From Naegleria gruberi (lineage: Eukaryota): a DNA stretch of 13,492 bases. The notes under the pieces are model-generated. The model saw only the letters and a list, made by a program, of their open reading frames with translations, was not told where the DNA came from and searched no databases. Made by a program: the position numbers and the translations under genes. Every line of letters begins with the position of its first letter. Within the stretch, counting starts at the first letter, position 1. Where the stretch lies: the NCBI GenBank assembly GCA_000004985.1, contig GG738994.1; one strand, 5' to 3'. This document shows, in pieces, positions 2-13,492 of the stretch.

Positions 2-1762
2 AATGCTCTATATATTGCTAAAACTACATTTATTCGTATGTTTGATCTTACCACTAGAAAAATGTCTTTAATTGCTGGTAGTGAAACAGAGGCTGCTCCG
101 AGTGGAGGCTATAATACTTATGACAGGAACCCAGAGGATGCCAGATTTACTTTTATTAAGGAAGTGAGAGTATTAGATGGAGTAGTGTATTTTCTTAATA
201 ATTGTTATGTGACTGACAGTTGTATCAATTATTTTTCTTTGGGTGATCGTATTTTTAACCTTGACAGGGGTTATACTGAAACTGGTGTGTCTTTTGTTGT
301 CTTCAAGGATAGTGAGGGTGAAGTCAATTCACTCGTAGCTACAGCAGAAAAGTTGGTCTATCATAAGAGGCCACATTATAATAGATTTATTAGGAGAACG
401 GAAGCTGATACCATTATCAAGTTGATTGATAACAAAGCTGGAAAACAGGCCTTGGTAACAACCACCAAAGTTATCGATTTTTCAAATGAAGCTACTCTCT
501 TCACTTTTGATTCACCATTTGCAGCTAGGGATGTGGTAATGATATCAGCAACAGCTATTGTATATTCTAGTAGTAGTGGCTATTACTTGAACAAAGTTGA
601 TGCTAAAGGAGAAACAGTACTTGCAGGTATTGGAAACACTATCCAAATTGGAGATTATGGACCTGGTGAAGAAGCATACGGAACCACTACTAAAGGTGTA
701 GCAGTTGTTGACTCAACTTTATACATTTCAGAATATGATAATATGAGAATAAGAAAAGTCAACATTAATACTGGAATTATTTATCCCCATATTACTTTAA
801 CATGCTACCCTTCAAAACTCAAAATGTCCAAAGACAATAACAAGTTATTTTTCCTATGTAGTGACGGTCCAAGTGTATCTATAATGCAGTACATTTTCAG
901 TACAAATTTAATAACAACTGTAAAGTCAGGTTTTCCAGCTGCCACATTTAAGGGTTTTACCTTTGACGCAATTACTGGAGCACTTTTTTATTCAACTTAT
1001 TCTAATGGTGTTACTCAAATTTGTAGACTTAATCCTAATTCCTGTAAGACAATCACTACACAATTTACTGGTGGTGTTTATGGAGACATTGATGCCTACA
1101 ATGGATACATCTATGTTATCTCAAGTGTTGGTTCCATCTATAAGATAAGATATGATACAATGGACGTACAAGTAATTGGCGCCTTCTATCTTGCTGGCTA
1201 TCCAACAATACACATTACAAAACAAGGTACCATATTAATTGGCTCTCATACAGCTGTTTATAGATTTGAAGGTGCACAGGATGGTTCTTTTTATCCAGTT
1301 TCAACTAATTTTGTAATTGCTGGTGATGCTCTTCCACCAGAGGGTACAACCAGTTTATGGTATAGAGAAATCAGCCAAGTTGCAATGTCTGATGATTATC
1401 AAAGATTATTTATTGCTGATCCACATCACCTTGGTGGTGTTACACAATTGAATGCCAAGACCTCATCCTGTTGGTCCTACAAGTATACTAATACTGCAGG
1501 AAATCTGGTATTACCAACTGGAACTTATTGTTCAATTTCTTGTAATTCTGTTGCTTCTAATAATCCAACCGTTTGTAGTGGTTCTGGTTCTTGTACTGCT
1601 TACTTGGTCAATCCTTCTTACTTGGGAAAACCATTTTGTGATTGTGAATATGGCTATTCTGGTACAACTTGTTCTGATTATACCTGTNTTGGTTACCCAA
1701 AAAATGAAACAACTGGTTGTAAATCTCATGGTACTTGTGTTGGATATAATACTTGTAACTGA
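2..1762 (+). CDS. 5'-truncated ORF of a large extracellular protein. It has NHL-type beta-propeller repeats (about 2-1450) and then six-Cys EGF-like repeats from 1469. It stops at TGA 1760-1762, which sits at a consensus Cys position.
   Basis: The 574-aa ORF in frame 2 stays open upstream of ATG 38 to the window edge (..NALYIAKTTFIR-MFDL..), so the Met at 38 is probably internal. NHL-like motifs include GVAVVDSTLYISEYDNMRIRKVNINTG, FTFDAITGALFYSTYSNG and YNGYIYVISSVGSIYKIRYD. From 1469 the repeats are EGF-like, for example CSGSGSCTAYLVNPSYLGKPFCDCEYGYSGTTC and CKSHGTCVGYNTCN. Position 1688 is an ambiguous base. Confidence 0.85.
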   Translation, partial: NALYIAKTTFIRMFDLTTRKMSLIAGSETEAAPSGGYNTYDRNPEDARFTFIKEVRVLDGVVYFLNNCYVTDSCINYFSLGDRIFNLDRGYTETGVSFVVFKDSEGEVNSLVATAEKLVYHKRPHYNRFIRRTEADTIIKLIDNKAGKQALVTTTKVIDFSNEATLFTFDSPFAARDVVMISATAIVYSSSSGYYLNKVDAKGETVLAGIGNTIQIGDYGPGEEAYGTTTKGVAVVDSTLYISEYDNMRIRKVNINTGIIYPHITLTCYPSKLKMSKDNNKLFFLCSDGPSVSIMQYIFSTNLITTVKSGFPAATFKGFTFDAITGALFYSTYSNGVTQICRLNPNSCKTITTQFTGGVYGDIDAYNGYIYVISSVGSIYKIRYDTMDVQVIGAFYLAGYPTIHITKQGTILIGSHTAVYRFEGAQDGSFYPVSTNFVIAGDALPPEGTTSLWYREISQVAMSDDYQRLFIADPHHLGGVTQLNAKTSSCWSYKYTNTAGNLVLPTGTYCSISCNSVASNNPTVCSGSGSCTAYLVNPSYLGKPFCDCEYGYSGTTCSDYTCXGYPKNETTGCKSHGTCVGYNTCN

Positions 1763-2024
1763 GCGAATGGTTATGGCGGAGCACAATGCCACTTTTTCTT
1801 GCAATGGTACACTTTCTAGTAGCAATCAAGTTTGTGGAGGCAATCGTAAGTGTATTGGTCCAAATACTTGTGAACCAATGTGTTATGGAATTGCTGCAAG
1901 TAAAACTGCCACAGTTTGTTCTGGACAAGGTAATTGTACAAGTGAAAACCATTGCACATGTTCATATGGTAGATATGGTTCAAAGTGTGAATATTCTCTT
2001 CCATGTGAATCGCAATGTAGTTTG
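1763..2024 (+). CDS. Continuation of the same EGF-repeat coding sequence. The frame changes twice: frame 2 runs to about 1795, then frame 0 runs to TGA 2025-2027.
   Basis: Directly after the TGA, frame 2 reads ANGYGGAQCHFF. This completes the motif C-N-[TGA]-A-N-GYGG-x-x-C, which matches CNCNNGYGGKNC further downstream. Frame 0 then reads SCNGTLSSSNQVCGGNRKCIGPNTCEPMCYG...CSGQGNCTSENHCTCSYGRYGSKCEYSLPC, which are perfect six-Cys EGF-like repeats. Removing one T from the T5 run at 1793-1797 joins the two frames. Confidence 0.6.
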
Positions 2025-3009
2025 TGAAAATGGGGGAAATTGTACCTTTAGTAAGGGTGTTGAGGTTTGTTCTTGTCCTCCAGGATTTGCTGGTAAAACA
2101 TGTGATCCAGCATGTTCATCAAATAAGAATTGTACAGACCAATATTTCCCTATTTGTGACGTTTCAGGTGTTTGTACATATGAATGTTTATCAGATGGTG
2201 ATTGTGCTACAGTTGTTGGCAGACCAATGTGCGAAACTGGAAGAAACGAATTCGACATTGGTGGTAAATGTATTGCAGGATGTATAAATGATACATCATG
2301 CATTGCAAAGGGAATGCAATATTGTAATGATGGTGTCTGTAGTAATTATGCTTGTGCAGCAGATGCTGATTGTGTTTCTCGTGGCTATTCCCAATGTGCT
2401 GATTTTGAATGCAGAGATGAATGTCATGTCAATAGTGATTGTTCCGACTTTGGTAAATACTCCATCTGTGGAGCTGATCCATCCAATAATTCTACCTATC
2501 ACAGATGCATTCCAAGATCATGTTTCAATAACAGTGATTGTGCAGATCCAATGACTGGAACTCCAAGATGTGATTTGAGTACTTATTTATGTGCAAAGGC
2601 AGATTGTTCAATCGATTCTGATTGTTACTCTTATGGTTATTCACTTTGTTCCAATAGTTTTTGTAAAATTGAATGTCTTTCTCATACTGATTGCAACAAA
2701 CCTGGTTTGCAAAGATGTGGTTTGAACAATACTGTACCTACGGAATATCGTAGATGTTTGGAATCTTGTGATTCTACTTGTGAAAAATGTTCAGAAAACA
2801 GAATCACATGTTTGCAATGCTCAACTGGATTTGTTGTAGACAATCTTGGTAAATGTGTTATTGATTCCACCAATCCTGTTAACAACTCTACTAATCCTCA
2901 AAACAATACCAATCCAGTCGATCCAGTCAACCCAACTAACGATACTAACCCAATTAAAATACTACTACCCCAAGTAGTAATAATACCACTCCAAGTAATA
3001 ATACCATAA
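2005..3009 (+). CDS. Continuation in frame 1. It contains one EGF-like repeat, seven tandem four-Cys repeats of about 30 aa (CxxxSDC..C..C), laminin/TNFR-like CxxC..GF modules, and an N/T/P-rich stalk rich in N-glycosylation sequons. The stop at 3007-3009 is probably an artefact.
   Basis: Frame 1 resumes the consensus at NVVCENGGNCTFSKGVEVCSCPPGFAGKTC. Repeats follow, such as ECLSDGDCATVVGRPMC, CAADADCVSRGYSQCADFEC, CHVNSDCSDFGKYSIC, CFNNSDCADPMTGTPRC and CSIDSDCYSYGYSLC. The tail reads NPVNNSTNPQNNTNPVDPVNPTNDTNP. From 2958 the +2 frame reads NTTTPSSNNTTPSNNTINTNNGQSTI into the gap. One extra A in the A4 run at 2956-2959 would join it to the upstream frame. Confidence 0.65.
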   Translation: MNRNVVCENGGNCTFSKGVEVCSCPPGFAGKTCDPACSSNKNCTDQYFPICDVSGVCTYECLSDGDCATVVGRPMCETGRNEFDIGGKCIAGCINDTSCIAKGMQYCNDGVCSNYACAADADCVSRGYSQCADFECRDECHVNSDCSDFGKYSICGADPSNNSTYHRCIPRSCFNNSDCADPMTGTPRCDLSTYLCAKADCSIDSDCYSYGYSLCSNSFCKIECLSHTDCNKPGLQRCGLNNTVPTEYRRCLESCDSTCEKCSENRITCLQCSTGFVVDNLGKCVIDSTNPVNNSTNPQNNTNPVDPVNPTNDTNPIKILLPQVVIIPLQVIIP

Positions 3010-3037
3010 ATACCAACAATGGACAATCCACAATAAT

Positions 3038-3634
3038 NNNNNNNNNNNNNNNNNNNNNNNNNNNNNNNNNNNNNNNNNNNNNNNNNNNNNNNNNNNNNNN
3101 NNNNNNNNNNNNNNNNNNNNNNNNNNNNNNNNNNNNNNNNNNNNNNNNNNNNNNNNNNNNNNNNNNNNNNNNNNNNNNNNNNNNNNNNNNNNNNNNNNNN
3201 NNNNNNNNNNNNNNNNNNNNNNNNNNNNNNNNNNNNNNNNNNNNNNNNNNNNNNNNNNNNNNNNNNNNNNNNNNNNNNNNNNNNNNNNNNNNNNNNNNNN
3301 NNNNNNNNNNNNNNNNNNNNNNNNNNNNNNNNNNNNNNNNNNNNNNNNNNNNNNNNNNNNNNNNNNNNNNNNNNNNNNNNNNNNNNNNNNNNNNNNNNNN
3401 NNNNNNNNNNNNNNNNNNNNNNNNNNNNNNNNNNNNNNNNNNNNNNNNNNNNNNNNNNNNNNNNNNNNNNNNNNNNNNNNNNNNNNNNNNNNNNNNNNNN
3501 NNNNNNNNNNNNNNNNNNNNNNNNNNNNNNNNNNNNNNNNNNNNNNNNNNNNNNNNNNNNNNNNNNNNNNNNNNNNNNNNNNNNNNNNNNNNNNNNNNNN
3601 NNNNNNNNNNNNNNNNNNNNNNNNNNNNNNNNNN
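3038..3634. other. Assembly gap: a run of 597 N characters.
   Basis: The gap is seen directly as a run of n. The X-only ORFs on the track across it are artefacts. Confidence 0.99.
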
Positions 3635-3653
3635 TGAACTTCACTTATTGTAA

Positions 3654-4330
3654 TGTACAACTGGTTACATAACTACTGATCTCTCTCAACCATGTTCAAT
3701 GTGTAACTCTACCCTTAAACTAACTCTTGATCAAAATGGAAAATGTGTTTGTGATGCTAGCAATGGATACGTTGTTGGTGCAACAGGAGCTTGTGTCAAG
3801 TACACAGCCAAGTGTCCTATTGCATGTGGTTCCAATGGGGCCTGTCAATTGTTAACTCCAACAACTTCAGGATGTGTGTGTAAGAATGGTTTTATCACAA
3901 CCAATGAAACTAAACCATGTTCATCTTGTCCTCAAGGAAAGATTAATTCTTCCTCTAAATGTGTATGTGATACAGTCAATGGATACACTATAAATGGTAC
4001 TGGTTGTGGCTGTGATGCTTCTCGTGGATATATTGCTGGTTCTGATGGACTTTGTTCTTGCAATGCAAATCTCAATTTGGTTACCTATGGTTCATCATGT
4101 GTCTGTAAGCTTAACTATCATTTAGTTAATGGATCTTGTGTTTTAATTCCTCCAGCTTGTTATGGTAGTTCGAGTTGTGGAATCCATGGACAATGTATGT
4201 ATGAGGATGTAAATAACACTGCCCGTACAATCTGTCAATGTGACACTGGATACACCACTGCCTCTTACAGTACCTCTCTTTGTGTAGACTGTGCTAGAGA
4301 TTATCGTATGGATAAAAATTATATCTGTAA
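3654..4330 (+). other. Cys-rich repeat region with CxCDxxNGYxxxxxGxC modules and CxxC/CxxxxC pairs.
   Basis: Examples are NGKCVCDASNGYVVGATGACV, SSKCVCDTVNGYTINGTGCGCDASRGYIAGSDGLCSC, and a six-Cys unit CYGSSSCGIHGQCMYEDVNNTARTICQCDTGYTT. Confidence 0.6.
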
Positions 4331-7300
4331 AAAGAGCTGTGTGCTCGATGGTTACAATGATGATTGTACTACCTATGTTCCTGCTGATATTTGTGCTTAT
4401 ACAAATCCCCAAACAATTCCATTCTGTGGATTTAATATTTACAGGGTAAGACAAAGAAGATTTTTAAGGCAGAATTATACAGGTGAACTTGTTTATATTG
4501 GAAGGGACATGGTTAAAGATTTGGACAAATCAATGATTTATTATGATACATTGGCTAAAAACAAAACCAGAGATGCCATGCTTGAACTTGCCAAAGCAGG
4601 AGTAGTTTGTGACAGCAAATGTAAAGAACATTTGACTGTCCTGTATTGTAAATCATTGGTACCTATGTGTGATGGAACCGATGCTCCAATAGAAAGAACA
4701 TTTTGTAAGCAAACTTGTATTGACATTTGGTCCCAAAAGTTAAATTACACTGTTAATTTGGAATCAAAGTGTGAAGGATTGTCAGTAGAAGATTCTTGTG
4801 ACTCGCGTCCATATATCAACCCTTCAACTCAATGCTTTGGTGTTCACTATTTAAATTCATCTGTTTGTTCAGGAAGGGGTCAATGCATTCAAAAAGATAC
4901 TTGTAATTGTAATAATGGATATGGAGGAAAAAATTGTGAACAATTCGTTTGTTTTATTTATAAGGATACCGATATACCAGTTTGTAATTATCGTGGAAAG
5001 TGCGTTGGACCACACACTTGTGCCTGTAATGGTCCTTGGACTGGAAGTGATTGTCAGATACCTCTCTGTAATCGTAAAACTGAAAAACAAGGCGGTTGCA
5101 ATTTCAATGGAGTTTGTAAGCTTATTCTTGGAAGTCCATCTTGTATCTGTGCTTCAAGTGGTAATTGGGCTAAATCAGATGTTTCTTGCTCTGTTTGTGC
5201 AACTGGATGGGGAGGACCTGGTTGTAATGTTCCAGTTTGTAATGGGGTTATATCAACAAGTCCAGATGTTTGTGGTGGAAGAGGTGGATGTGATTCGATT
5301 CGTCTTGCACAACCATCTTGTACTTGTTTGAAAGGATATGAAGGAAACAATTGCCAAAACTTTAAGTGTAATGAAATTGATAGAAATAGCACTTCTGTGT
5401 GTTCTGGACGTGGTACTTGTGCTGGCTTAAACACTTGTGTTTGTAAGGGTAATTTCGACCCAGCTAAATTCTGTTCTGAATGTACACCGGCCTATAATGG
5501 AACTGATTGTACTGAAAGAGTTTGTACTGAAGCAGGTACTTGTAATGGTAATGGTATTTGTAATTCAAATGGAAAATGTGACTGTACTGGAAATTGGGTT
5601 GGTCAATTTTGTGACAAATGTTTACCTGGATTTGTTGGTTCTTCATGTAATATTAAATGTGATTGTAATGGAAGAGGAAGTTGTAACAATGATGGATCAT
5701 GTATCTGTTCTGAAAATGCAGAAGGTACCAAATGTGAAACTTGTAAAACAGGATGGTATGGTGATAAGTGTGATTTCTCAATTGATGCTTCTTCATTTGG
5801 ATTTTCATCAAATGGTGACTCCATCTCAGGAACAGTTTATTCTTCTCTCAAGAGAAAGTTTGATTGTTCTGAACTAATTTTGGAATCTTCAAAGCTAGGT
5901 AAAGGAGCAGTGTGCGTTGTTAATAGTGATTCAAACTTGATGACCATTTCTCTTGGAAGAAATGCTTCAATTGTCCTTGATGAGGTTCTTACATTCAAGT
6001 CATACTTTAATTCTTCATCAACTGTTTCTGTAACATTTGCTGAAAGAGATTATATACCAACAAATCCTTCCATCTCTGTCACTACTGATAAGACAACAAT
6101 TTCAAGAGCTTGTGGTTTCGTCTATTTGGATGCCTCTGGCTCCACATCAACAGATCGTAGAACATTGCAATTCTCTTGGAGTGTTCAGTCTGCACCTTCT
6201 CCACTTAATGGTCTTACTTTAACTAGTTTAATTACTAATCAACAAGGGTCTTCAGGAGTCACTATTAATTCAAACAGTCTTGGTGTTGGCAGTTATTCTG
6301 TTACAGCAACCATCACAAGTCCATTTTCTGGTTTAAGTGCTTCTTCAACTGTCTCATTCCTGGTTACTGATTTGACAGCTCCTATCGTTTCAATTAAGGA
6401 GGGCTCTGAAAGTACAATGACTATTGGAAAGATTTATTCAATCAATCCAAAGATTACATTCCCAAGCTGTTATGGTGGAAATGGACCATTTACGTTTACA
6501 TATGCTTTGGATGTTAGAAATGTCATTCCAGTAGTTGTTAAACAAAAGTATAATATTCTCGTCTTCAGTGAAGATTATACCAAGATTACTGAACCAGGCG
6601 ATTATTACTTCACTTTCACTGTTTCTCAAGCTGGAGCATCAAGTGTGACAGTTCCATTTAAGGTAACTGCTAAGGCACTTCCTTTGAGCGTTGGATTCAA
6701 TATTGGTGATAGAACTCAATCTGTGGAAACTGAAGTTTCGTTCACCGTTTCCAAGTCTGACCCAAGTAATCCTTCAGATAATTCTGGAACAGTTGTCTTG
6801 TCATGTTTGGATCTTGACAATAGTGCAGATTGTAGCGGATTTACCTCTGGTGAAGCAAATATTGACCAAACTACTTTGAAATTCTCTAAATTTATGGTTC
6901 CCGGCCCATATCTCTTCACTGCTACATTTACAAAGGGTTCAAGAAGTAGCTCTGCAAGTATTAAAGTGACTGTTATTGATCAACCAAAGGACACTGTCAT
7001 TAGAGTGTCTATTGCTGCTCCTCCAAATACTGACTTGACAGCTGTTGATCCATCTTCTGATTTCATATTACAAGCTTATTCATCAGATGTTCTGTCAACT
7101 GACAGAGTTTACACATGGTCATCACCTGACCTTGATATGTCTGGAATTGTTACCAGTAACAAGTACATTCTTCTTCCAAAGATCTTACTTGTTCCAGGTA
7201 CTTTCCATATTATTAACCTTAATGTAGTAGATGATCAAAGATCTGGTGAAGCAACTATTTCATTTACAATCAACTCTCCACCAACAGTTGGTATTTTGGA

Positions 7301-8816
7301 AGTTTCTCCTGCTACAGGTGTTGCTTTACAAGACGATTTCCAAATCAAGTGTGGTAATGGTTGGTATGATACTCAACTTCCTTTGATGTATGAATTCAAA
7401 TACAGAGTGGTAGGAGATTCAACTTGGAAGGTTTTGTCAGAAATGTCTGAAAAGAAATCAATCACTTCTCAATTACCAGCTGGTAAAATTGAAATCAAGA
7501 CAATTGTTTATGATTCTCTTTCTGCCTCCTCTGAAACTACAACTCTTGTTACTGTTACTGTCCCTTCCCTTAGTGAAGCCATTGCTGCTTTGAATGTTTC
7601 TCAAATGGGTACAGTTTCAGTTGCTTCAGTTTCATCTGCATTGAGTTTAGTAAGTGAAATTACTGTTTCCACTCCAGAACAAAAACAAGCCCTAGCACAA
7701 GCTAATAAGGCTCTTGTAGACAAATTCTTTGAACAACAAGACGTACAATCTCAAATCGTTTCTGAAACTTCTCAATCTGCCAGTTCAAAAGTTTCTGTTA
7801 TTTCTTCCATTAGTAATTGTTTAGGAAACTTCCCAGATGAAACCATTTCCAAGGTTATTGATCAGTTCTCTTCAACTATCTCATCAGCTTCTTCTTCATC
7901 TAATGTTAATATGAAGACAGATGATATTCAAAACTCCAAGGAAGCTGCTTTGAACCTCAAGAGCTATGTTTCAAATGCCATTTCAAAGAGAGCAGTAACT
8001 ACTCTTACTGTCAAGGATTTGGCAAAGATTGATGGCATCTATAGCAATATTGTTAATGTCGAACTTAAGAGTGCAGTTGCTGATATGCCAGCTGTCAGAA
8101 GTACTGGTGTTGATTCATCTATTTATGCCAGACTTGTCAGTATTTCAACCCTTAGTGGTTTGTCTGGTTTTGTTGATGATACAAGCTTTTCTTCATCCTA
8201 TTTTGAAATGAAGAATGTTTTCAGCTCTATGAAGAGATTTGAAAATGTTGACAGTGTTAAAATTGTCACAAAGGTTTACAAGTTGACCAACTCAACATTG
8301 AAAGCAATCAGTAAGGTGATTGACTTTGTCATTACTGAAAATGATAACAACCTTTCCTTTGCATCTGAAAATATCACTCTTGCCACAATCAAGATTGAAA
8401 AAGTCAAAACAGCAAGAACCTCATTCACACAAACACAAATTTCATGTTATTCAGTTCAAAACAATGTCTATTCCATCTCGCCAAATTGTAAAGTTGTTAG
8501 CACCAATAGTGCAACTGCAGATATTTCTGTTACTAACACTGGTTCCTATGTTGTTGCTGAAGTCACTGTGGACAGCCCAATTACTCCAACAAATTCCACG
8601 CCGAAACCAACAGAATCGAATAATAATAACATTGTCACTCCAATTCCTGGTGTTAATCAATCAGACTCCAACTTGTATTACATCATTTTTGTTCTGGCCA
8701 TAATACCTATTGTGTTATTGATAATTGTTGGTATATTGGTTTGTATTTGTTGTATGATCAAGAAGAAGAAGAAAAGACCAAGCCCAGGTCCAAGAGATAT
8801 CGAACTAACTGCTTAA
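3654..8816 (+). CDS. A 5.1 kb intronless exon encoding the C-terminal about 1720 aa of a giant type-I membrane protein. The order is Cys-rich repeats, a Frizzled-like CRD, nine EGF-like repeats, a REJ-like module, a helical Ser-rich region, a GPS-like remnant, a mucin-like stalk, one transmembrane helix and a short Lys-rich tail. The ATG at 3699 is not the true start.
   Basis: The track gives 1705 aa with no stop over 5118 nt of AT-rich DNA. The same frame is open from 3654, right after a TAA at 3651-3653 that abuts the gap. There it reads CTTGYITTDLSQPC, which mirrors CSTGFVVDNLGKC at 2820-2860. There is no signal peptide at MCNSTLKL. The C-terminus is YYIIFVLAIIPIVLLIIVGILVCICCMI followed by KKKKKRPSPGPRDIELTA and TAA at 8814-8816. 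Confidence 0.92.
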   Translation, partial: CTTGYITTDLSQPCSMCNSTLKLTLDQNGKCVCDASNGYVVGATGACVKYTAKCPIACGSNGACQLLTPTTSGCVCKNGFITTNETKPCSSCPQGKINSSSKCVCDTVNGYTINGTGCGCDASRGYIAGSDGLCSCNANLNLVTYGSSCVCKLNYHLVNGSCVLIPPACYGSSSCGIHGQCMYEDVNNTARTICQCDTGYTTASYSTSLCVDCARDYRMDKNYICKKSCVLDGYNDDCTTYVPADICAYTNPQTIPFCGFNIYRVRQRRFLRQNYTGELVYIGRDMVKDLDKSMIYYDTLAKNKTRDAMLELAKAGVVCDSKCKEHLTVLYCKSLVPMCDGTDAPIERTFCKQTCIDIWSQKLNYTVNLESKCEGLSVEDSCDSRPYINPSTQCFGVHYLNSSVCSGRGQCIQKDTCNCNNGYGGKNCEQFVCFIYKDTDIPVCNYRGKCVGPHTCACNGPWTGSDCQIPLCNRKTEKQGGCNFNGVCKLILGSPSCICASSGNWAKSDVSCSVCATGWGGPGCNVPVCNGVISTSPDVCGGRGGCDSIRLAQPSCTCLKGYEGNNCQNFKCNEIDRNSTSVCSGRGTCAGLNTCVCKGNFDPAKFCSECTPAYNGTDCTERVCTEAGTCNGNGICNSNGKCDCTGNWVGQFCDKCLPGFVGSSCNIKCDCNGRGSCNNDGSCICSENAEGTKCETCKTGWYGDKCDFSIDASSFGFSSNGDSISGTVYSSLKRKFDCSELILESSKLGKGAVCVVNSDSNLMTISLGRNASIVLDEVLTFKSYFNSSSTVSVTFAERDYIPTNPSISVTTDKTTISRACGFVYLDASGSTSTDRRTLQFSWSVQSAPSPLNGLTLTSLITNQQGSSGVTINSNSLGVGSYSVTATITSPFSGLSASSTVSFLVTDLTAPIVSIKEGSESTMTIGKIYSINPKITFPSCYGGNGPFTFTYALDVRNVIPVVVKQKYNILVFSEDYTKITEPGDYYFTFTVSQAGASSVTVPFKVTAKALPLSVGFNIGDRTQSVETEVSFTVSKSDPSNPSDNSGTVVLSCLDLDNSADCSGFTSGEANIDQTTLKFSKFMVPGPYLFTATFTKGSRSSSASIKVTVIDQPKDTVIRVSIAAPPNTDLTAVDPSSDFILQAYSSDVLSTDRVYTWSSPDLDMSGIVTSNKYILLPKILLVPGTFHIINLNVVDDQRSGEATISFTINSPPTVGILEVSPATGVALQDDFQIKCGNGWYDTQLPLMYEFKYRVVGDSTWKVLSEMSEKKSITSQLPAGKIEIKTIVYDSLSASSETTTLVTVTVPSLSEAIAALNVSQMGTVSVASVSSALSLVSEITVSTPEQKQALAQANKALVDKFFEQQDVQSQIVSETSQSASSKVSVISSISNCLGNFPDETISKVIDQFSSTISSASSSSNVNMKTDDIQNSKEAALNLKSYVSNAISKRAVTTLTVKDLAKIDGIYSNIVNVELKSAVADMPAVRSTGVDSSIYARLVSISTLSGLSGFVDDTSFSSSYFEMKNVFSSMKRFENVDSVKIVTKVYKLTNSTLKAISKVIDFVITENDNNLSFASENITLATIKIEKVKTARTSFTQTQISCYSVQNNVYSISPNCKVVSTNSATADISVTNTGSYVVAEVTVDSPITPTNSTPKPTESNNNNIVTPIPGVNQSDSNLYYIIFVLAIIPIVLLIIVGILVCICCMIKKKKKRPSPGPRDIELTA
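4392..4799 (+). other. Frizzled-type cysteine-rich domain (FZ-CRD)-like module.
   Basis: There are ten Cys. The core spacing CKEHLTVLYC-KSLVPMC-DGTDAPIERTFC-KQTC gives C-x8-C-x6-C-x11-C-x3-C. This matches the Fz CRD core (..FLCSMYAPVC..PPCRSLC..) as I recall it. A conserved Pro precedes the third Cys, and a Trp (IDIW) follows the CxxxC pair. Confidence 0.4.
4833..5771 (+). other. Array of about nine six-Cys EGF-like repeats of the tenascin / Dictyostelium type.
   Basis: Examples are VCSGRGQCIQKDTCNCNNGYGGKNCEQFVC, VCNYRGKCVGPHTCACNGPWTGSDCQIPLC, CSVCATGWGGPGCNVPVC, CDKCLPGFVGSSCNIKCDCNGRGSCNNDGSCIC and CETCKTGWYGDKCDF. Confidence 0.85.
6100..7570 (+). other. REJ-like module (receptor for egg jelly / polycystin-1 type). 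The core signature lies at 7270-7400.
   Basis: A Cys-poor, Ser/Thr-rich beta-strand region shows the pattern FTINSPPTVGILEVSPATGVALQDDFQIKCGNGWYDTQLPLMYEFKYRV. This fits the REJ signature nAPPsgG..v.P..GvAL...F.i.C.gW.D...PL.Y as I remember it from PKD1 and suREJ. Upstream there are SW/TW-containing repeats (SWSVQSAPSPLNG, TWSSPDLDMSG). Confidence 0.5.
8676..8759 (+). other. A single predicted transmembrane helix. It follows a Ser/Thr/Pro/Asn stalk (8580-8675) and precedes a (AAG)n-encoded KKKKK stop-transfer sequence.
   Basis: The sequence YYIIFVLAIIPIVLLIIVGILVCICCMI is 28 consecutive hydrophobic residues, with a basic cluster immediately after it. Confidence 0.8.
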
Positions 8817-9026: not shown

Positions 9027-9914
9027 TCATGTAACTCTGTAAACCTTGATTCTATTATTTCCAGTATCAACAATAAACAAACGAGATGACCCGTAGCAGA
9101 ATGCAATTCCAGAAGGATATTTCAATGAATTTTCATGGTTTCCAAAGCTACCAATGCAAGTAGAACCAGAAAAGGGATTGTTAGGATGAAATTTTGAAAT
9201 TCTATGTGAATCCCACTCTGTAAGAAATATATCACCAGTTGACTTGTCCACAAAAACAGAGTTTGGTGCTTGAAATTCTCCCTTATCATTCCCAATACTT
9301 CCAAAGCTACTAATAAATTCTCCATTAGATTTCAGTATCTGTATGCGATTATTTCCACTGTCAGAAATAATGATATTCCCAGCACTGTCAATGTCAATAT
9401 CTCTTGGGAATGAGAATTGACCATATTCCTTTCCCATAGATCCAATCGATTTCAGTAATTCACCACCTGGAGAAAAAACTACAATTCTATGTTTAAACCA
9501 ATCACAAACATAGATATTTCCCTCATAGTCAACCACAACACCTGTTGGAGAATCCATTACATTCTTTGTTGTAACTCCTCCCCATCTCCATATCTCATTT
9601 CCATTAAAATCATATTTACAAATCAATGAATCTCGAGTGAAACTAATAATTAAAGTGTGATCCCAATGAACTGTCACTGCATTTGGTTTGAATGGTGTCG
9701 TAAACATGTACTTGAATGTCAGAGTTGACTCATCAAAAACCTGAATACGTCTATTATCTGTATCCACAACAAATATTAATTGATTTTTGAAATCAATAGC
9801 CACATCAGATGGATTCTTGAATTGACCATTCTGAGAACCATAACTTCCAATGCATCCAATCAATTCAAACTCGGACTGGCTCGTTTTCATTCCCGAACAA
9901 CCATTCACAGTCAT
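9027..9914 (-). CDS. Six-blade NHL-repeat beta-propeller protein. The ATG is at 9912-9914, and the track's TTG start at 9917 is an alternative-start artefact.
   Basis: Classic NHL repeats are present: PSDVAIDFKNQLIFVVDTDNRRIQVFDES, PTGVVVDYEGNIYVCDWFKHRIVVF, PRDIDIDSAGNIIISDSGNNRIQIL, PNSVFVDKSTGDIFLTEWDSHRISKF and PSGIAFCYGSSRLFIVDTGNNRIKVYRVT. The stop is TGA at 9027-9029. Confidence 0.85.
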   Translation of the reverse strand: MTVNGCSGMKTSQSEFELIGCIGSYGSQNGQFKNPSDVAIDFKNQLIFVVDTDNRRIQVFDESTLTFKYMFTTPFKPNAVTVHWDHTLIISFTRDSLICKYDFNGNEIWRWGGVTTKNVMDSPTGVVVDYEGNIYVCDWFKHRIVVFSPGGELLKSIGSMGKEYGQFSFPRDIDIDSAGNIIISDSGNNRIQILKSNGEFISSFGSIGNDKGEFQAPNSVFVDKSTGDIFLTEWDSHRISKFHPNNPFSGSTCIGSFGNHENSLKYPSGIAFCYGSSRLFIVDTGNNRIKVYRVT

Positions 9915-9917
9915 CAA

Positions 9918-10282
9918 TGTTGATGTTGTTTGATACTGACTATTATGATGACCATTAAAATTATGAAAATAGGACAGTGATGAATTCTTCTTAATTTCAT
10001 ATTGTTATTATTATTATTATCAATCATATAATTGTCATTGTTACTCATCGGAGTAGTTTCTATCAATGTTGTATGATGATCATGATCCATCAGTGCACTA
10101 CTATTAAAATTACTATTATTATTGTTGTTATTGTGATTATGATTGGGTAGAGATGAAGTCATCATCATCAACCTTCCATCAGAATCATAATGATGTGATG
10201 GTTGTGATGTTGGTGGTACCTCCGAAGCACAATCATCAAAGGATCGTTTCATTCGGTTTTTTTGTTTGTTGTATTGATGCAT
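9918..10282 (-). CDS. Possible N-terminal low-complexity, Asn/His-rich extension of the NHL gene. It lies in a different frame and needs a frame shift at about 9915-9990 to join.
   Basis: The 122-aa ORF reads MHQYNKQKNRMKRSFDDCASEVPPTSQPSHHYDSDGRLMMMTSSLPNHNHNNNNNNSNFNSS...DNNNNNN. It has moderate GC and is unlike spacer sequence. Just after the Asn tract it crosses into the NHL frame, which opens immediately after the (TAA)n reading of the same tract. Confidence 0.45.
10001..10018 (-). repeat. (AAT)6 tract encoding poly-Asn. A second imperfect AAT/AAC/CAT tract encoding NHNHNNNNNNSNFNSS lies at about 10100-10146.
   Basis: Seen directly in the sequence. Confidence 0.85.
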
Positions 10283-10411: not shown

Positions 10412-11378
10412 TCAATGTTTTCTTCCCTTCTTAGTACTACCTCCCACTTTCTTACTTGTAGTAGAGCCACTAGATGTTTGTGCCTTACTCTTTCCCTCAT
10501 ATACAGCATTCTTGAACTTGTCAAAATACTTAAAATTGGTAACATCTGAGAGAATGGCCTTTGAACGTTGGAGAACATTCTGTCCTTTTGTTGGAGCATA
10601 GTTGCCACCACTACTTGGAGTTGATGCAGAGGAGAGATTATCATGTGAAGATAATAATCTTGTTGGGGATGTTGAATTGTTAACACTTTGTTGCTCAGTA
10701 GAGAATTCTGTACAATTGGTATTAGGAGATCTATTCGAAACACAGGATTCTGTGGAAATGTGTGAATCAGTGCTCTCTGGTGGCTTGTAATAAAGTAGTG
10801 CAAAATAGATTTTCTCCTTCATTATTTTGGAGTCGAATATTGGTTTGACTCGTTGAAGCTTGGAACTAAAATCATCCTCTGCGGAGAAATACTCAAACTC
10901 TTCATTAAGATTATTTTCTTCACTTGAAATAAGGCCATTATCAGCAATACTACCCTTAGACTCGTCACTAGGAGTTTCTTCAGTTGAAGCAACACTACCA
11001 GATTTTCCATTATCCGAAAGCGAATGATCATCAACAGTGCAACATTTTTCTTTTTCATAACTCTTTCTTACTGAAGGAAATTTAGCACATTCTTTTGGTT
11101 CATATTTAGAAAAAGAAAGAGAAGCAATTTTAATTCCTTTCACCCAATAGAACACCAAAACAGATAACAAATATTCGTAGATTAAGGTGCAAATGTAATT
11201 CTCTTCTCTCTTTCTTGTTACTAGCTGTACATGAAGAATAGCAGAACCATCCAGACACCACACTAAAGTGCAATCCCTTATCTTCAGCCATTTCCTTTAA
11301 AATCGGTTTTTTTGGTTCATCATTATCGGTTTCATCGATAATAAGTTCTAGGTTGCATGTAAGAAAGCCATGTTTCAT
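10412..11378 (-). CDS. Hypothetical acidic Ser-rich protein with a frame discontinuity. The N-terminal part (from ATG 11376-11378) is in one frame, and the rest (to TGA 10412-10414) is in another. The join is either a +/-1 frameshift in 11130-11263 or an intron at 11092-11221.
   Basis: ORF A (11130-11378) reads MKHGFLTCNLELIIDETDNDEPKKPILKEMAEDKGLHFSVVSGWFCYSSCTA. ORF B (10412-11263) reads ..KYEPKECAKFPSVRKSYEKEKCCTVDDHSLSDNGKSGSVASTEETPSDES..GSTKKGRKH. The sequence aaaaaaaATG precedes the start. A minus-strand GTAACA donor at 11221 and a ccaaaAG acceptor at 11092 would give an in-phase 130-nt intron. Confidence 0.6.
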
Positions 11379-11534: not shown

Positions 11535-11539
11535 AAAAA
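11535..11539 (-). terminator. Pol III T5 terminator immediately 3' of the 5S gene.
   Basis: On the minus strand, ..GTAGTC is followed directly by TTTTT. Confidence 0.7.
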
Positions 11540-11657
11540 GACTACAGCACCACAGGTTCCCAAGTTGTCTCCAATCTCAGTACTGATGTGGCTCGACGAT
11601 GCTTAACTTCTCAAATCGGACGGGATGAGGTGCATGAATCGTGATATGGCCGTAGCC
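11540..11657 (-). rRNA. 5S ribosomal RNA gene, about 118 nt.
   Basis: The minus strand reads GGCTACGGCCATATCACGATTCATGCACCTCATCCCGTCCGATTTGAGAAGTTAAGCATCGTCGAGCCACATCAGTACTGAGATTGGAGACAACTTGGGAACCTGTGGTGCTGTAGTC. This matches the universal 5S blocks GCCATAYCAC, CCCGTCCGAT.TG.GAAGTTAAGC, AGTACT..G.TGGGAGAC and CTGGGAA.ACC.GGTGCTGTAG. The 5' GGCUACGGC pairs with the 3' GCUGUAGUC to form helix I. Confidence 0.9.
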
Positions 11658-12292: not shown

Positions 12293-12666
12293 GAACAGTG
12301 AAGGCAACTAATCTATTGATTGTTGGTTCAGTAAGTTATTGTTTAGAAAAACTTGCAACGTGACCATATATTTATCACATTTGAATTTTATCTACTTAGA
12401 AAGAGAAACTTGTGGTTGATCAATAAACCTTCAAATTTCGAATTTGAGTCTTCAAATATATTGTTTCGTATTGGCAAGTATAAATGTAATTCAAGACAGT
12501 GCAATGAATTTTGTTATAGTGCTTGATCATTAGAATTGTGAATTGGTATAAGGAAAGGTTTGATCGTTTCTCTAGTTAATTTTATTTTCTATTAGTTGAT
12601 AAAAAGAATAAGGTACCAATCTGCATGTTCACAAATCCCCCATTCACAAACCATGGCTGGTAAGGA

Positions 12667-12831
12667 ATGCAGCAATCATCTATGAACGAGGAAACCTACA
12701 ACGAAGCATGTTTCCAGTTCGATATCATGCTCAAGATATGTGACTACAGAGTCTTCATCTTGGTTAACCTCAAAGGTCAGATTGACTCAAAAAAGTCGAG
12801 TTTATGTATTCCTACAGAAAAGATCCTGTAG
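12667..12831 (+). CDS. Small 54-aa ORF, just below the track threshold. Its validity is uncertain.
   Basis: The ORF reads MQQSSMNEETYNEACFQFDIMLKICDYRVFILVNLKGQIDSKKSSLCIPTEKIL and ends at TAG 12829-12831. A TATAAAT motif at 12479-12485 and an ATGGCTGgtaagg (start plus donor-like) at 12653-12665 lie upstream in another frame. Confidence 0.2.
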   Translation: MQQSSMNEETYNEACFQFDIMLKICDYRVFILVNLKGQIDSKKSSLCIPTEKIL

Positions 12832-13492
12832 AAGTACAGTCAATGGTTTTATCAAGTTTCATTTGTGAGGTTTGTGATATTGGTTTTGAATGTGTGAAAA
12901 GTGGAATTAGAAAATTGTGGTACGTTTAATGTGTGAAAAATATATAAATAGGATTCAAGAAAATAATTGCATGAGTTATTTTCTTTAAATCATTGAGGTG
13001 GAAAGAGCATTTTCAATAGTTCCATGATGGCTCTTCTTCAAGATCGTAATACCATGGTTTTTAAGAATTTCCTTCAACTCGGTATTTATATCCACTTGTA
13101 TTTGAGCAAATAATCCAGAACTGTTGTAAATTTTTGTCTTGACAAAGTAAGTTGGAGGCAAACTTCCCTTTTTTCGATTCCTATTTTCTCAAAAGTTTTC
13201 TAATTGGTGTTTATGGAGAAAGAACATGAAGTTGCATCATCATAACCACTGTTTCAAACAAAATCAATCAATTTACTGTAAACTTCAGAGTGCCACTTCC
13301 AGGTGTCTCAAGAAAACATTGAACCTTGTCAAAGCAAACAAAATCTTTCGTTTCCACACACAAAACATGATTTAGTCCATTTTTGCCCATATCGGAATTC
13401 ACAACGTGATTAAAAAAACTTTAAATTCGCAAACACAACTATTTGCCTTCAGATAAAAGAAAAAGAAACCAACAACAATTATTAGAACATTT

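Follow-up and report, generated by a model that had tools for sequence, protein, structure and literature searches.

A REJ-domain surface receptor gene of Naegleria gruberi and the fragmented coding sequence upstream of it

The locus and its gene models

The window analysed here is a complete Naegleria gruberi scaffold of 13,492 bp (contig GG738994.1 of assembly GCA_000004985.1), with a GC content of approximately 35%. On its plus strand, a gene for a REJ-type receptor emerges from an assembly gap, while 3 kb of coding-like sequence runs into the same gap from the other side, and our subject is whether the two form one gene. In the public annotation, each side of the gap carries one gene model:

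1975-3009, plus strand: NAEGRDRAFT_76452 (EFC35886.1, 344 aa), in frame 1 throughout (100% identity by exact look-up)
3038-3634: assembly gap of 597 N, a size that is an estimate
3699-8816, plus strand: NAEGRDRAFT_76453 (EFC35887.1, 1,705 aa), N-terminally truncated (100% identity by exact look-up)

A lone N also occurs at 1688, apart from the gap. No gene model covers bases 2-1762, and the 574-aa open reading frame (ORF) at 38-1759 is absent from the searched protein collection, leaving approximately 1.7 kb of upstream coding sequence unannotated. The first ~12 residues of the 344-aa model are a frame 1 reading across EGF coding of frame 3, and its last 16 residues (ILLPQVVIIPLQVIIP, followed by the stop codon) are a frame 1 reading across an N/T-rich tandem repeat. 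We regard both this model and the N-terminus of NAEGRDRAFT_76453 as fragments with artificial ends. Because the database entries are fragmentary in this way, surveys of domain architecture that draw on them will miss or misdescribe a giant REJ-type receptor. Exact protein look-up with P0001 and P0002 found no other copies of the locus in the searchable collections, and an exact scan of both gap-edge sequences against the metagenome collection gave 0 matches. A literature search on Naegleria together with REJ or teneurin returned nothing relevant.

The post-gap REJ-domain protein

The product encoded downstream of the gap is a genuine member of the REJ-domain proteins and has a single transmembrane (TM) helix. 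The following features are observed along it:

3637-4330, plus strand: half-EGF (C.C..G[FY]...C) and CG.HG.C modules, beginning mid-module at the gap edge
4536-4736, plus strand: Frizzled-type cysteine-rich domain (Fz-like CRD; Pfam PF01392, E 1.6e-5, sub-threshold)
4833-5800, plus strand: about nine teneurin/tenascin/laminin-type EGF repeats (Pfam EGF_Teneurin, E 1.7e-9; also EGF_TEN, EGF_laminin, and EGF_LMN_ATRN)
5800-7586, plus strand: REJ module of about five beta-sandwich domains (Pfam REJ and an AlphaFold2 (AF2) model)
7569-8567, plus strand: helical bundle and then a small beta region, in a GAIN-like layout (AF2, low confidence), at the position of the GPS in relatives
8568-8816, plus strand: T/P/N stalk, single TM helix (~8673-8765), short basic tail KKKKKRPSPGPRDIELTA, and stop codon (translation)

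The REJ profile (PF02010) scores 115.8 bits against a gathering score of 25 (E 2.6e-33, aa 1060-1311) and also matches the relatives P0002, P0003, P0004, and P0008. The EGF array likewise exceeds its threshold, with PF23106 at 38 bits against a gathering score of 24.3 and PF25024 also matched. The Fz-like CRD, which follows the half-EGF modules and precedes the EGF array, scores 25.8 bits against a gathering score of 32.1 with the window protein alone scored, and the assignment is suggestive only. A cysteine pattern similar to that of the Fz-like CRD is seen by eye at residues ~700-830 of P0004. The KD19 hydropathy maximum of 3.49 marks the sole hydrophobic segment of the protein, at the C-terminal TM helix.

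The REJ-to-TM region was modelled with AF2 from a five-sequence alignment (mean pLDDT 57). The model contains about five beta-sandwich domains (pLDDT 65-85 over model residues 20-520), a six-helix bundle at model residues 524-694 followed by strands at 795-856 (pLDDT <50 there), and the TM helix at 892-922. When used as a Foldseek query, it returned only generic tandem Ig/FN3 arrays.

The membrane-proximal region differs among the relatives in its GPS motif. No Pfam GPS match is found in the window protein, whereas P0004 scores 40.6 bits against a gathering score of 22.5, and P0003 and P0008 give sub-threshold matches. In these three metagenome relatives, the motif lies just before the TM helix, and P0004 has HTTDF at the cleavage position. 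At 8382-8567 (plus strand), both N. gruberi paralogues keep only two of the four GPS cysteines, and their H-L/T site is missing; in alignment A1, the column of Cys 816 is invariant. From these sequence comparisons, the GPS motif appears to have decayed in the N. gruberi proteins, and with it autoproteolysis has probably been lost.

The closest relative of the post-gap protein is P0002 (NAEGRDRAFT_45249, 2,628 aa), an N. gruberi paralogue with 45% identity over 95% of the post-gap protein and the same order of Cys modules, EGF array, REJ, decayed GPS region, stalk, TM helix, and KKKK tail. Unlike the post-gap model, P0002 is complete, with a signal peptide and ~890-950 extra N-terminal residues of EGF-like modules. 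By eye, residues ~240-530 and ~530-820 of P0002 form a near-identical duplication of ~290 aa of EGF-like modules, reflecting either recent expansion of the protein or a duplication made in assembly. In P0003 (2,830 aa), a signal peptide and a non-EGF domain of ~480 aa precede the EGFs, and the same chain continues with REJ, a GPS-like motif, and a TM helix. The N-terminal domain of P0003 can be read by eye as a propeller; Pfam and PDB searches with it found nothing.

The N-terminus of the post-gap model

The annotated start of NAEGRDRAFT_76453, Met 3699, falls inside a Cys module, within the CSMC motif of ...SQPCSMCNS.... As the original prediction had it, the post-gap ORF lacks a signal peptide, with no N-terminal hydrophobic segment detected by KD19 hydropathy. 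The accompanying claim that this ORF is open right up to the gap does not survive inspection, as an in-frame TAA lies at 3651-3653. Insertion of one T near 3651 (AAT-TGT) yields NFTYCNCTTGYITTDLSQPC, a normal C.C..GY module that is cut mid-domain at the gap edge. Because the repaired module starts mid-domain, the post-gap gene continues into the gap, and the conclusion that its public model is N-terminally incomplete is supported.

The post-gap protein aligns to P0002 from residue 954 (BLAST) or 894 (Smith-Waterman), the two registers being a consequence of repetitive modules. Internal N/S/T-rich linkers are present in P0002 (869-890) and P0004. A collinearity argument built on the P0002 linker was dropped because the register is ambiguous and because the stalk upstream of the gap fits the pre-TM stalk of P0002 better.

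The coding sequence upstream of the gap

Upstream of the gap, we resolve four regions:

2-1500, plus strand: beta-rich domain, truncated at its 5' end, a putative divergent NHL-like beta-propeller (frame 2 open, no stop)
1501-2100, plus strand: about four tenascin/teneurin-type EGF repeats with C.C..G[YF].G..C motifs, holding a cluster of frame lesions
2101-2862, plus strand: eight 4-Cys repeats (C-x3-[DS]C-x6-9-C-x4-12-C), then one C.QC.TGF...C module (translation)
2863-3037, plus strand: N/T/P/S-rich mucin-like stalk, an imperfect tandem repeat running into the gap and holding a frameshift in an A4 run at 2956-2959

The original prediction described coding sequence that is continuous from the window start to 3037 once the lesions are bridged, and this continuity holds; its description of that sequence as EGF throughout does not, as the first ~1,500 nt encode the beta-rich domain. 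Because the scaffold begins inside this domain, the true N-terminus and signal peptide lie off the scaffold.

The NHL label that had been given to the domain clearly fits only a single blade. In a phmmer search of 1.84 billion representatives with the propeller query, 833 proteins are found at E<=1e-3, and the seven top matches (P0010-P0016) are all strong NHL/TEN_NHL proteins in a Pfam scan. These matches are all confined to query aa ~165-262. A blade profile scores 74.5 bits at aa 196-262 and gives marginal copies at aa 21-64 and 456-474, leaving aa 196-262 as the sole clearly NHL-like blade. Pfam returns no match on residues 1-500, NHL included, even at E 10, and a homology search with the upstream 586 aa (2-1759) returned no match, its own gene model included. 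Among the top 150 propeller matches, none has EGF, REJ, or high Cys content, all being generic NHL proteins, and thus the upstream part is without a relative of the same architecture. The single-sequence AF2 model of the propeller is nearly all beta, with a pLDDT of 32.7 that makes it unusable. On balance, we read residues 1-500 as a divergent NHL-like propeller with one canonical blade.

The EGF repeats that follow are 35-42% identical to the EGF arrays of P0001-P0008 (BLASTP), and Pfam EGF_2 matches this stretch below threshold. For the 4-Cys region, a homologue search returned only its own 344-aa model; it matches no Pfam family, and the PDB contains no relative beyond the leading EGF. Sequence searches of the PDB with four segments likewise gave no informative relatives. 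The tandem repeat of the stalk has periods of 18 and 21 at 2929-3003 (TRF), and the repaired stalk reads NPVNNST/NPQNNT/NPVDPV/NPTNDT/NPIKNT/TTPSSNN/TTPSNN/TINTNNGQSTI. In total, the repaired upstream product (2-3037) comprises 1,011 aa with 74 Cys and 18 N-glycosylation sequons, and it is without a TM helix, as its highest KD19 hydropathy is only 1.15.

Frame lesions

Upstream of the gap, frame 2 is open over 2-1759 (586 codons) and is followed by frame 3 (~1790-2024), frame 1 (2026-2958), and again frame 3 (2958-3037). Five lesions are found here, namely the N at 1688, a TGA at 1760, and frameshifts near 1785, 2010, and 2957, and one lies beyond the gap:

1760-1762, plus strand: TGA in place of a Cys of the EGF signature C.C..GY.G..C (CN-stop-ANGYGGAQC)
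~1783-1787, plus strand: frameshift in a T5 run, with HFF joined to SCNGT...VCGG
~2007-2016, plus strand: frameshift, with PCESQ joined to VVCENGGNC at normal C1-x6-C2 spacing
2956-2959, plus strand: missing A in an A4 run, with NPIK joined to NTTTPSS, completing the hexapeptide series NPQNNT/NPTNDT/NPIKNT
3651-3653, plus strand: in-frame TAA, 16 nt from the gap edge, removed by a 1-nt insertion

A one-base repair restores a recognisable motif at each frame junction, and the Cys and repeat spacing of every upstream EGF and 4-Cys repeat is preserved. Introns were considered as the cause of the frame changes and ruled out, as the motifs continue uninterrupted through each lesion. The lesions concentrate at 1688-2016 and next to the gap, no more than 80 and 16 nt from its edges, while 5.1 kb of downstream sequence is flawless; two of the four indels fall in clear homopolymer runs (T5 and A4). 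Judged from this sequence context, the lesions would be base-call errors, comprising one N, one TGT/TGC-to-TGA change, and four single-base indels.

One gene or two across the gap

We lean, with a confidence only a little above even, towards a single very large gene (~3,000 aa or more) that spans 2-8816 on the plus strand and encodes a type I single-pass surface glycoprotein. The two sides of the gap share their strand and their ectodomain character, and there is only one TM helix for >2,700 aa of extracellular-type sequence. The upstream side runs into the gap without a TM helix or credible stop, while the downstream side is without a start or signal peptide. Combined, the two sides give ~3,000 aa, in line with the full-length REJ relatives P0002 (2,628 aa) and P0003 (2,830 aa). 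P0003 also sets a precedent for a non-EGF N-terminal domain ahead of EGFs, REJ, and a TM helix in one chain, and the linkers inside P0002 and P0004 do so for an internal N/S/T-rich stretch. The gap also has an obvious cause of assembly failure, as it starts inside a tandem repeat. That the two sides belong to the same gene had been part of the original prediction; the downstream incompleteness on which it drew stands, and a single gene is the most economical, though only probable, reading. A cysteine module said to recur on the two sides does not add to the case: the pattern quoted for it fits neither copy, with K directly before C in the upstream copy and CxC rather than CxxC in the downstream one, and the cores (GFVVDNLGK versus GYITTDLSQ) share only two of nine residues. 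The looser form C.{1,2}C..G[FY]...C is a generic half-EGF pattern, found 4 times upstream and 6 times downstream, and P0002 has 22 copies of it. The recurrence is of the same general kind of module on both sides and is not evidence of continuity.

If the two sides are one gene, the fragmentation could have arisen as follows. The scaffold would start inside the gene, with the loss of the signal peptide and the beginning of the propeller, and base-call errors would have entered at the low-quality stretch of 1688-2016 and at the two contig ends that flank the gap. Assembly would have collapsed inside the tandem repeat encoding the N/T/P mucin-like linker, leaving a gap of ~600 nt, which we infer to hold only linker and modules. 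Automatic annotation would then have produced two artificial models (344 and 1,705 aa), with no model for the first 1.7 kb. The predicted N-terminal half would comprise, in order, the NHL-like propeller, EGFs, 4-Cys repeats, mucin-like linker, half-EGF modules, and Fz-like CRD, with the C-terminal half continuing with the teneurin-type EGF array, REJ, the helical-plus-beta region (GAIN-like, with a decayed GPS), stalk, TM helix, and basic tail. The comparison with suREJ1 and the ectodomain of PKD1 suggests that such a protein would be a receptor that mediates adhesion or senses ligands at the surface of the amoeba, with an ectodomain that is rigid and glycosylated.

Several observations weigh against a single gene. 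The gap is all N, with no sequence spanning 3038-3634, and the searches found neither an orthologue with a contiguous gene nor a close relative of the upstream part. P0002 has no propeller and no 4-Cys repeats, and no similarity is detectable between it and the upstream 4-Cys region. That the lesions are sequencing errors is itself only our reading of sequence context. The remaining points concern where an upstream gene might end. A boundary hidden in the gap, with the upstream gene ending in a TM helix and short tail and the REJ gene starting with its own promoter, ATG, and signal peptide, is in our view unlikely, and it would give the REJ gene an N-terminal region much shorter than that of its paralogue. 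Stalks of this N/T/P type directly precede the TM helix in P0001 and P0002, and within P0002 it is this pre-TM stalk that the upstream stalk matches best (E 1e-5, largely compositional), with a weaker match to the internal linker (E 0.005). The upstream side also shares only generic EGF similarity with the P0002 N-terminus, and if the ~290-aa duplication in P0002 is recent, the long N-terminus of the latter need not be ancestral. A TM helix with tail (144 nt in P0001), a spacer of ~130 nt, and a signal peptide with half-module (~130 nt) add up to ~400 nt, which is enough to fit in a gap of nominally 597 nt, and a head-to-tail spacer of ~130 nt does exist between the minus-strand ORFs at 10282/10412. 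This arrangement nevertheless requires that an entire gene boundary fall inside a gap of ~600 nt without a trace on either side, that ~400 nt of unique sequence be missing from the assembly although a tandem repeat is what visibly caused the gap, and that the REJ protein be only ~1,800 aa, compared to 2,628 and 2,830 aa in its relatives. The original prediction had framed this alternative as two tandem paralogous receptors, for which the likeness between the two sides, ~40% identity over single EGFs, is too slight.

A boundary before the gap is a somewhat less likely proposition. Here, the frameshift at 2957 would be real, the upstream gene would end at the TAA at 3007-3009 as publicly annotated, and the REJ gene would start in the gap, which then faces no size constraint. 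The original prediction overlooked this frame 1 stop, which follows the hydrophobic tail ILLPQVVIIPLQVIIP. No stop interrupts frame 1 between 2026 and the TAA at 3007, which is where NAEGRDRAFT_76452 ends, and the last 16 residues of this reading are strongly hydrophobic (mean KD ~2.2, by hand) after a polar stalk of small residues, a layout resembling a glycosylphosphatidylinositol (GPI) signal, so that the tail could serve as a GPI-attachment-type signal. However, N/T codons (AAT/ACT/ACC) shifted by one base become ATA/CTA/GTA and thereby account for the hydrophobic tail. The tail is also repetitive in its own right (PQVVII/PLQVII) and has three prolines and two glutamines in 16 residues, a composition that is atypical for a GPI tail. 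The repaired frame, by comparison, keeps both the hexapeptide series and the composition and is open to the gap edge. The shift occurs in an A4 run 80 nt from the contig end, the contig carries four or more further lesions, and the N-terminus of the same 344-aa model is demonstrably out of frame.

We give the least weight to the idea that the upstream 3 kb is a decaying pseudogene or fragment, with a real TGA and real frameshifts, leaving only the REJ gene functional and starting in the gap. The upstream 3 kb does contain five lesions, compared to none in the 5.1-kb downstream ORF proper, no gene model covers its bases 2-1762, and the upstream piece is without relatives. Yet none of the 74 Cys has been lost, every EGF and 4-Cys repeat keeps its spacing, and the lesions are clustered around the N and the contig ends rather than spread out. 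Moreover, the downstream gene, which is clearly functional, has a lesion of the same type 16 nt from the gap, and two of the four indels are in homopolymer runs (T5 and A4).

Other genes on the scaffold

The remainder of the scaffold carries features on the minus strand:

9027-9917, minus strand: NHL gene with four canonical repeats (PF01436, E 5e-31)
9914-10282, minus strand: ORF just upstream of the NHL gene in another frame, an N-terminal part with N/H/S homopolymer-like runs
10412-11263 and 11130-11378, minus strand: two ORFs with no Pfam match
11539-11657, minus strand: full-length 5S rRNA gene (Rfam RF00001, 100 bits, E 2.4e-21)
12615-12843, minus strand: full-length U3 snoRNA gene (Rfam RF00012, 76.7 bits, E 1.2e-15)

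The minus-strand NHL gene has a weak likeness to the plus-strand propeller, with a pairwise E of 0.001 over one blade. The frame change between 9914-10282 and 9027-9917 suggests another frameshift or a short intron, while the ORFs at 10412-11263 and 11130-11378 probably belong to a single gene, divided by a frame change or an intron. The U3 snoRNA gene is ~1 kb from the 5S gene and on the same strand.

Comparison with known systems

What the scaffold presents is a routine problem of draft assembly and annotation in a REJ-type receptor and not a new kind of system, with a genuine and useful correction to the annotation as its outcome. The well-supported part adds a REJ-bearing family of single-pass receptors, with a GPS in relatives, to a free-living excavate lineage, and this family is useful for tracing the origin of the ectodomain modules of polycystin and suREJ. 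We put at even the chance that one single-pass chain of ~3,000 aa or more carries an NHL-like propeller, Fz-like CRD, teneurin-type EGFs, REJ, and a decayed GPS/GAIN-like region. If so, this would be a single-chain domain combination not described in animals, and the ectodomain building blocks of polycystins, adhesion GPCRs, and teneurins would already have been shuffled together far outside Metazoa.

Of the families to which the locus had been likened, the polycystin/REJ group is supported with respect to the REJ module but not with respect to membership in the polycystin-1 family. The likeness to Polycystin-1/PKDREJ consists of a REJ module and then a membrane-proximal region with a GPS in relatives (P0004), and the predicted tandem beta-sandwiches of the Naegleria REJ agree with published REJ modelling (PMC3677617). 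Compared to animal REJ modules, identity is seen only at the level of the Pfam profile. Unlike Polycystin-1, the Naegleria protein has one TM helix rather than eleven, no Pfam match to PLAT/LH2 or PKD-channel domains, and no detectable GPS of its own.

The proposed resemblance to teneurins, based on NHL and EGF, fails on domain order, membrane topology, and YD repeats. There is a likeness in the teneurin-type EGFs and in the one propeller blade that matches NHL/TEN_NHL proteins. Teneurins, however, are type II proteins in the order TM, EGF, NHL, YD shell, and toxin, whereas the Naegleria TM helix is C-terminal, its NHL-like region is 5' of the EGFs, and Pfam gives no YD/RHS or Tox-GHH match.

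suREJ1, which reportedly has a single C-terminal TM helix, offers the closest architecture. In a 1996 account (PMC2120838), it is a large modular surface glycoprotein with EGF and lectin modules and REJ, and it shares with the Naegleria protein N-terminal ligand-binding modules and EGF followed by REJ. The relative P0008 even begins, by eye, with a region that looks like a C-type lectin before its EGFs and REJ. Compared to suREJ1, the Naegleria protein is much richer in EGF/Cys modules, contains an Fz-like CRD, and lacks C-type lectin domains; it would also carry an NHL-like propeller if the two sides of the gap are one gene. Its host is a heterolobosean amoeba.

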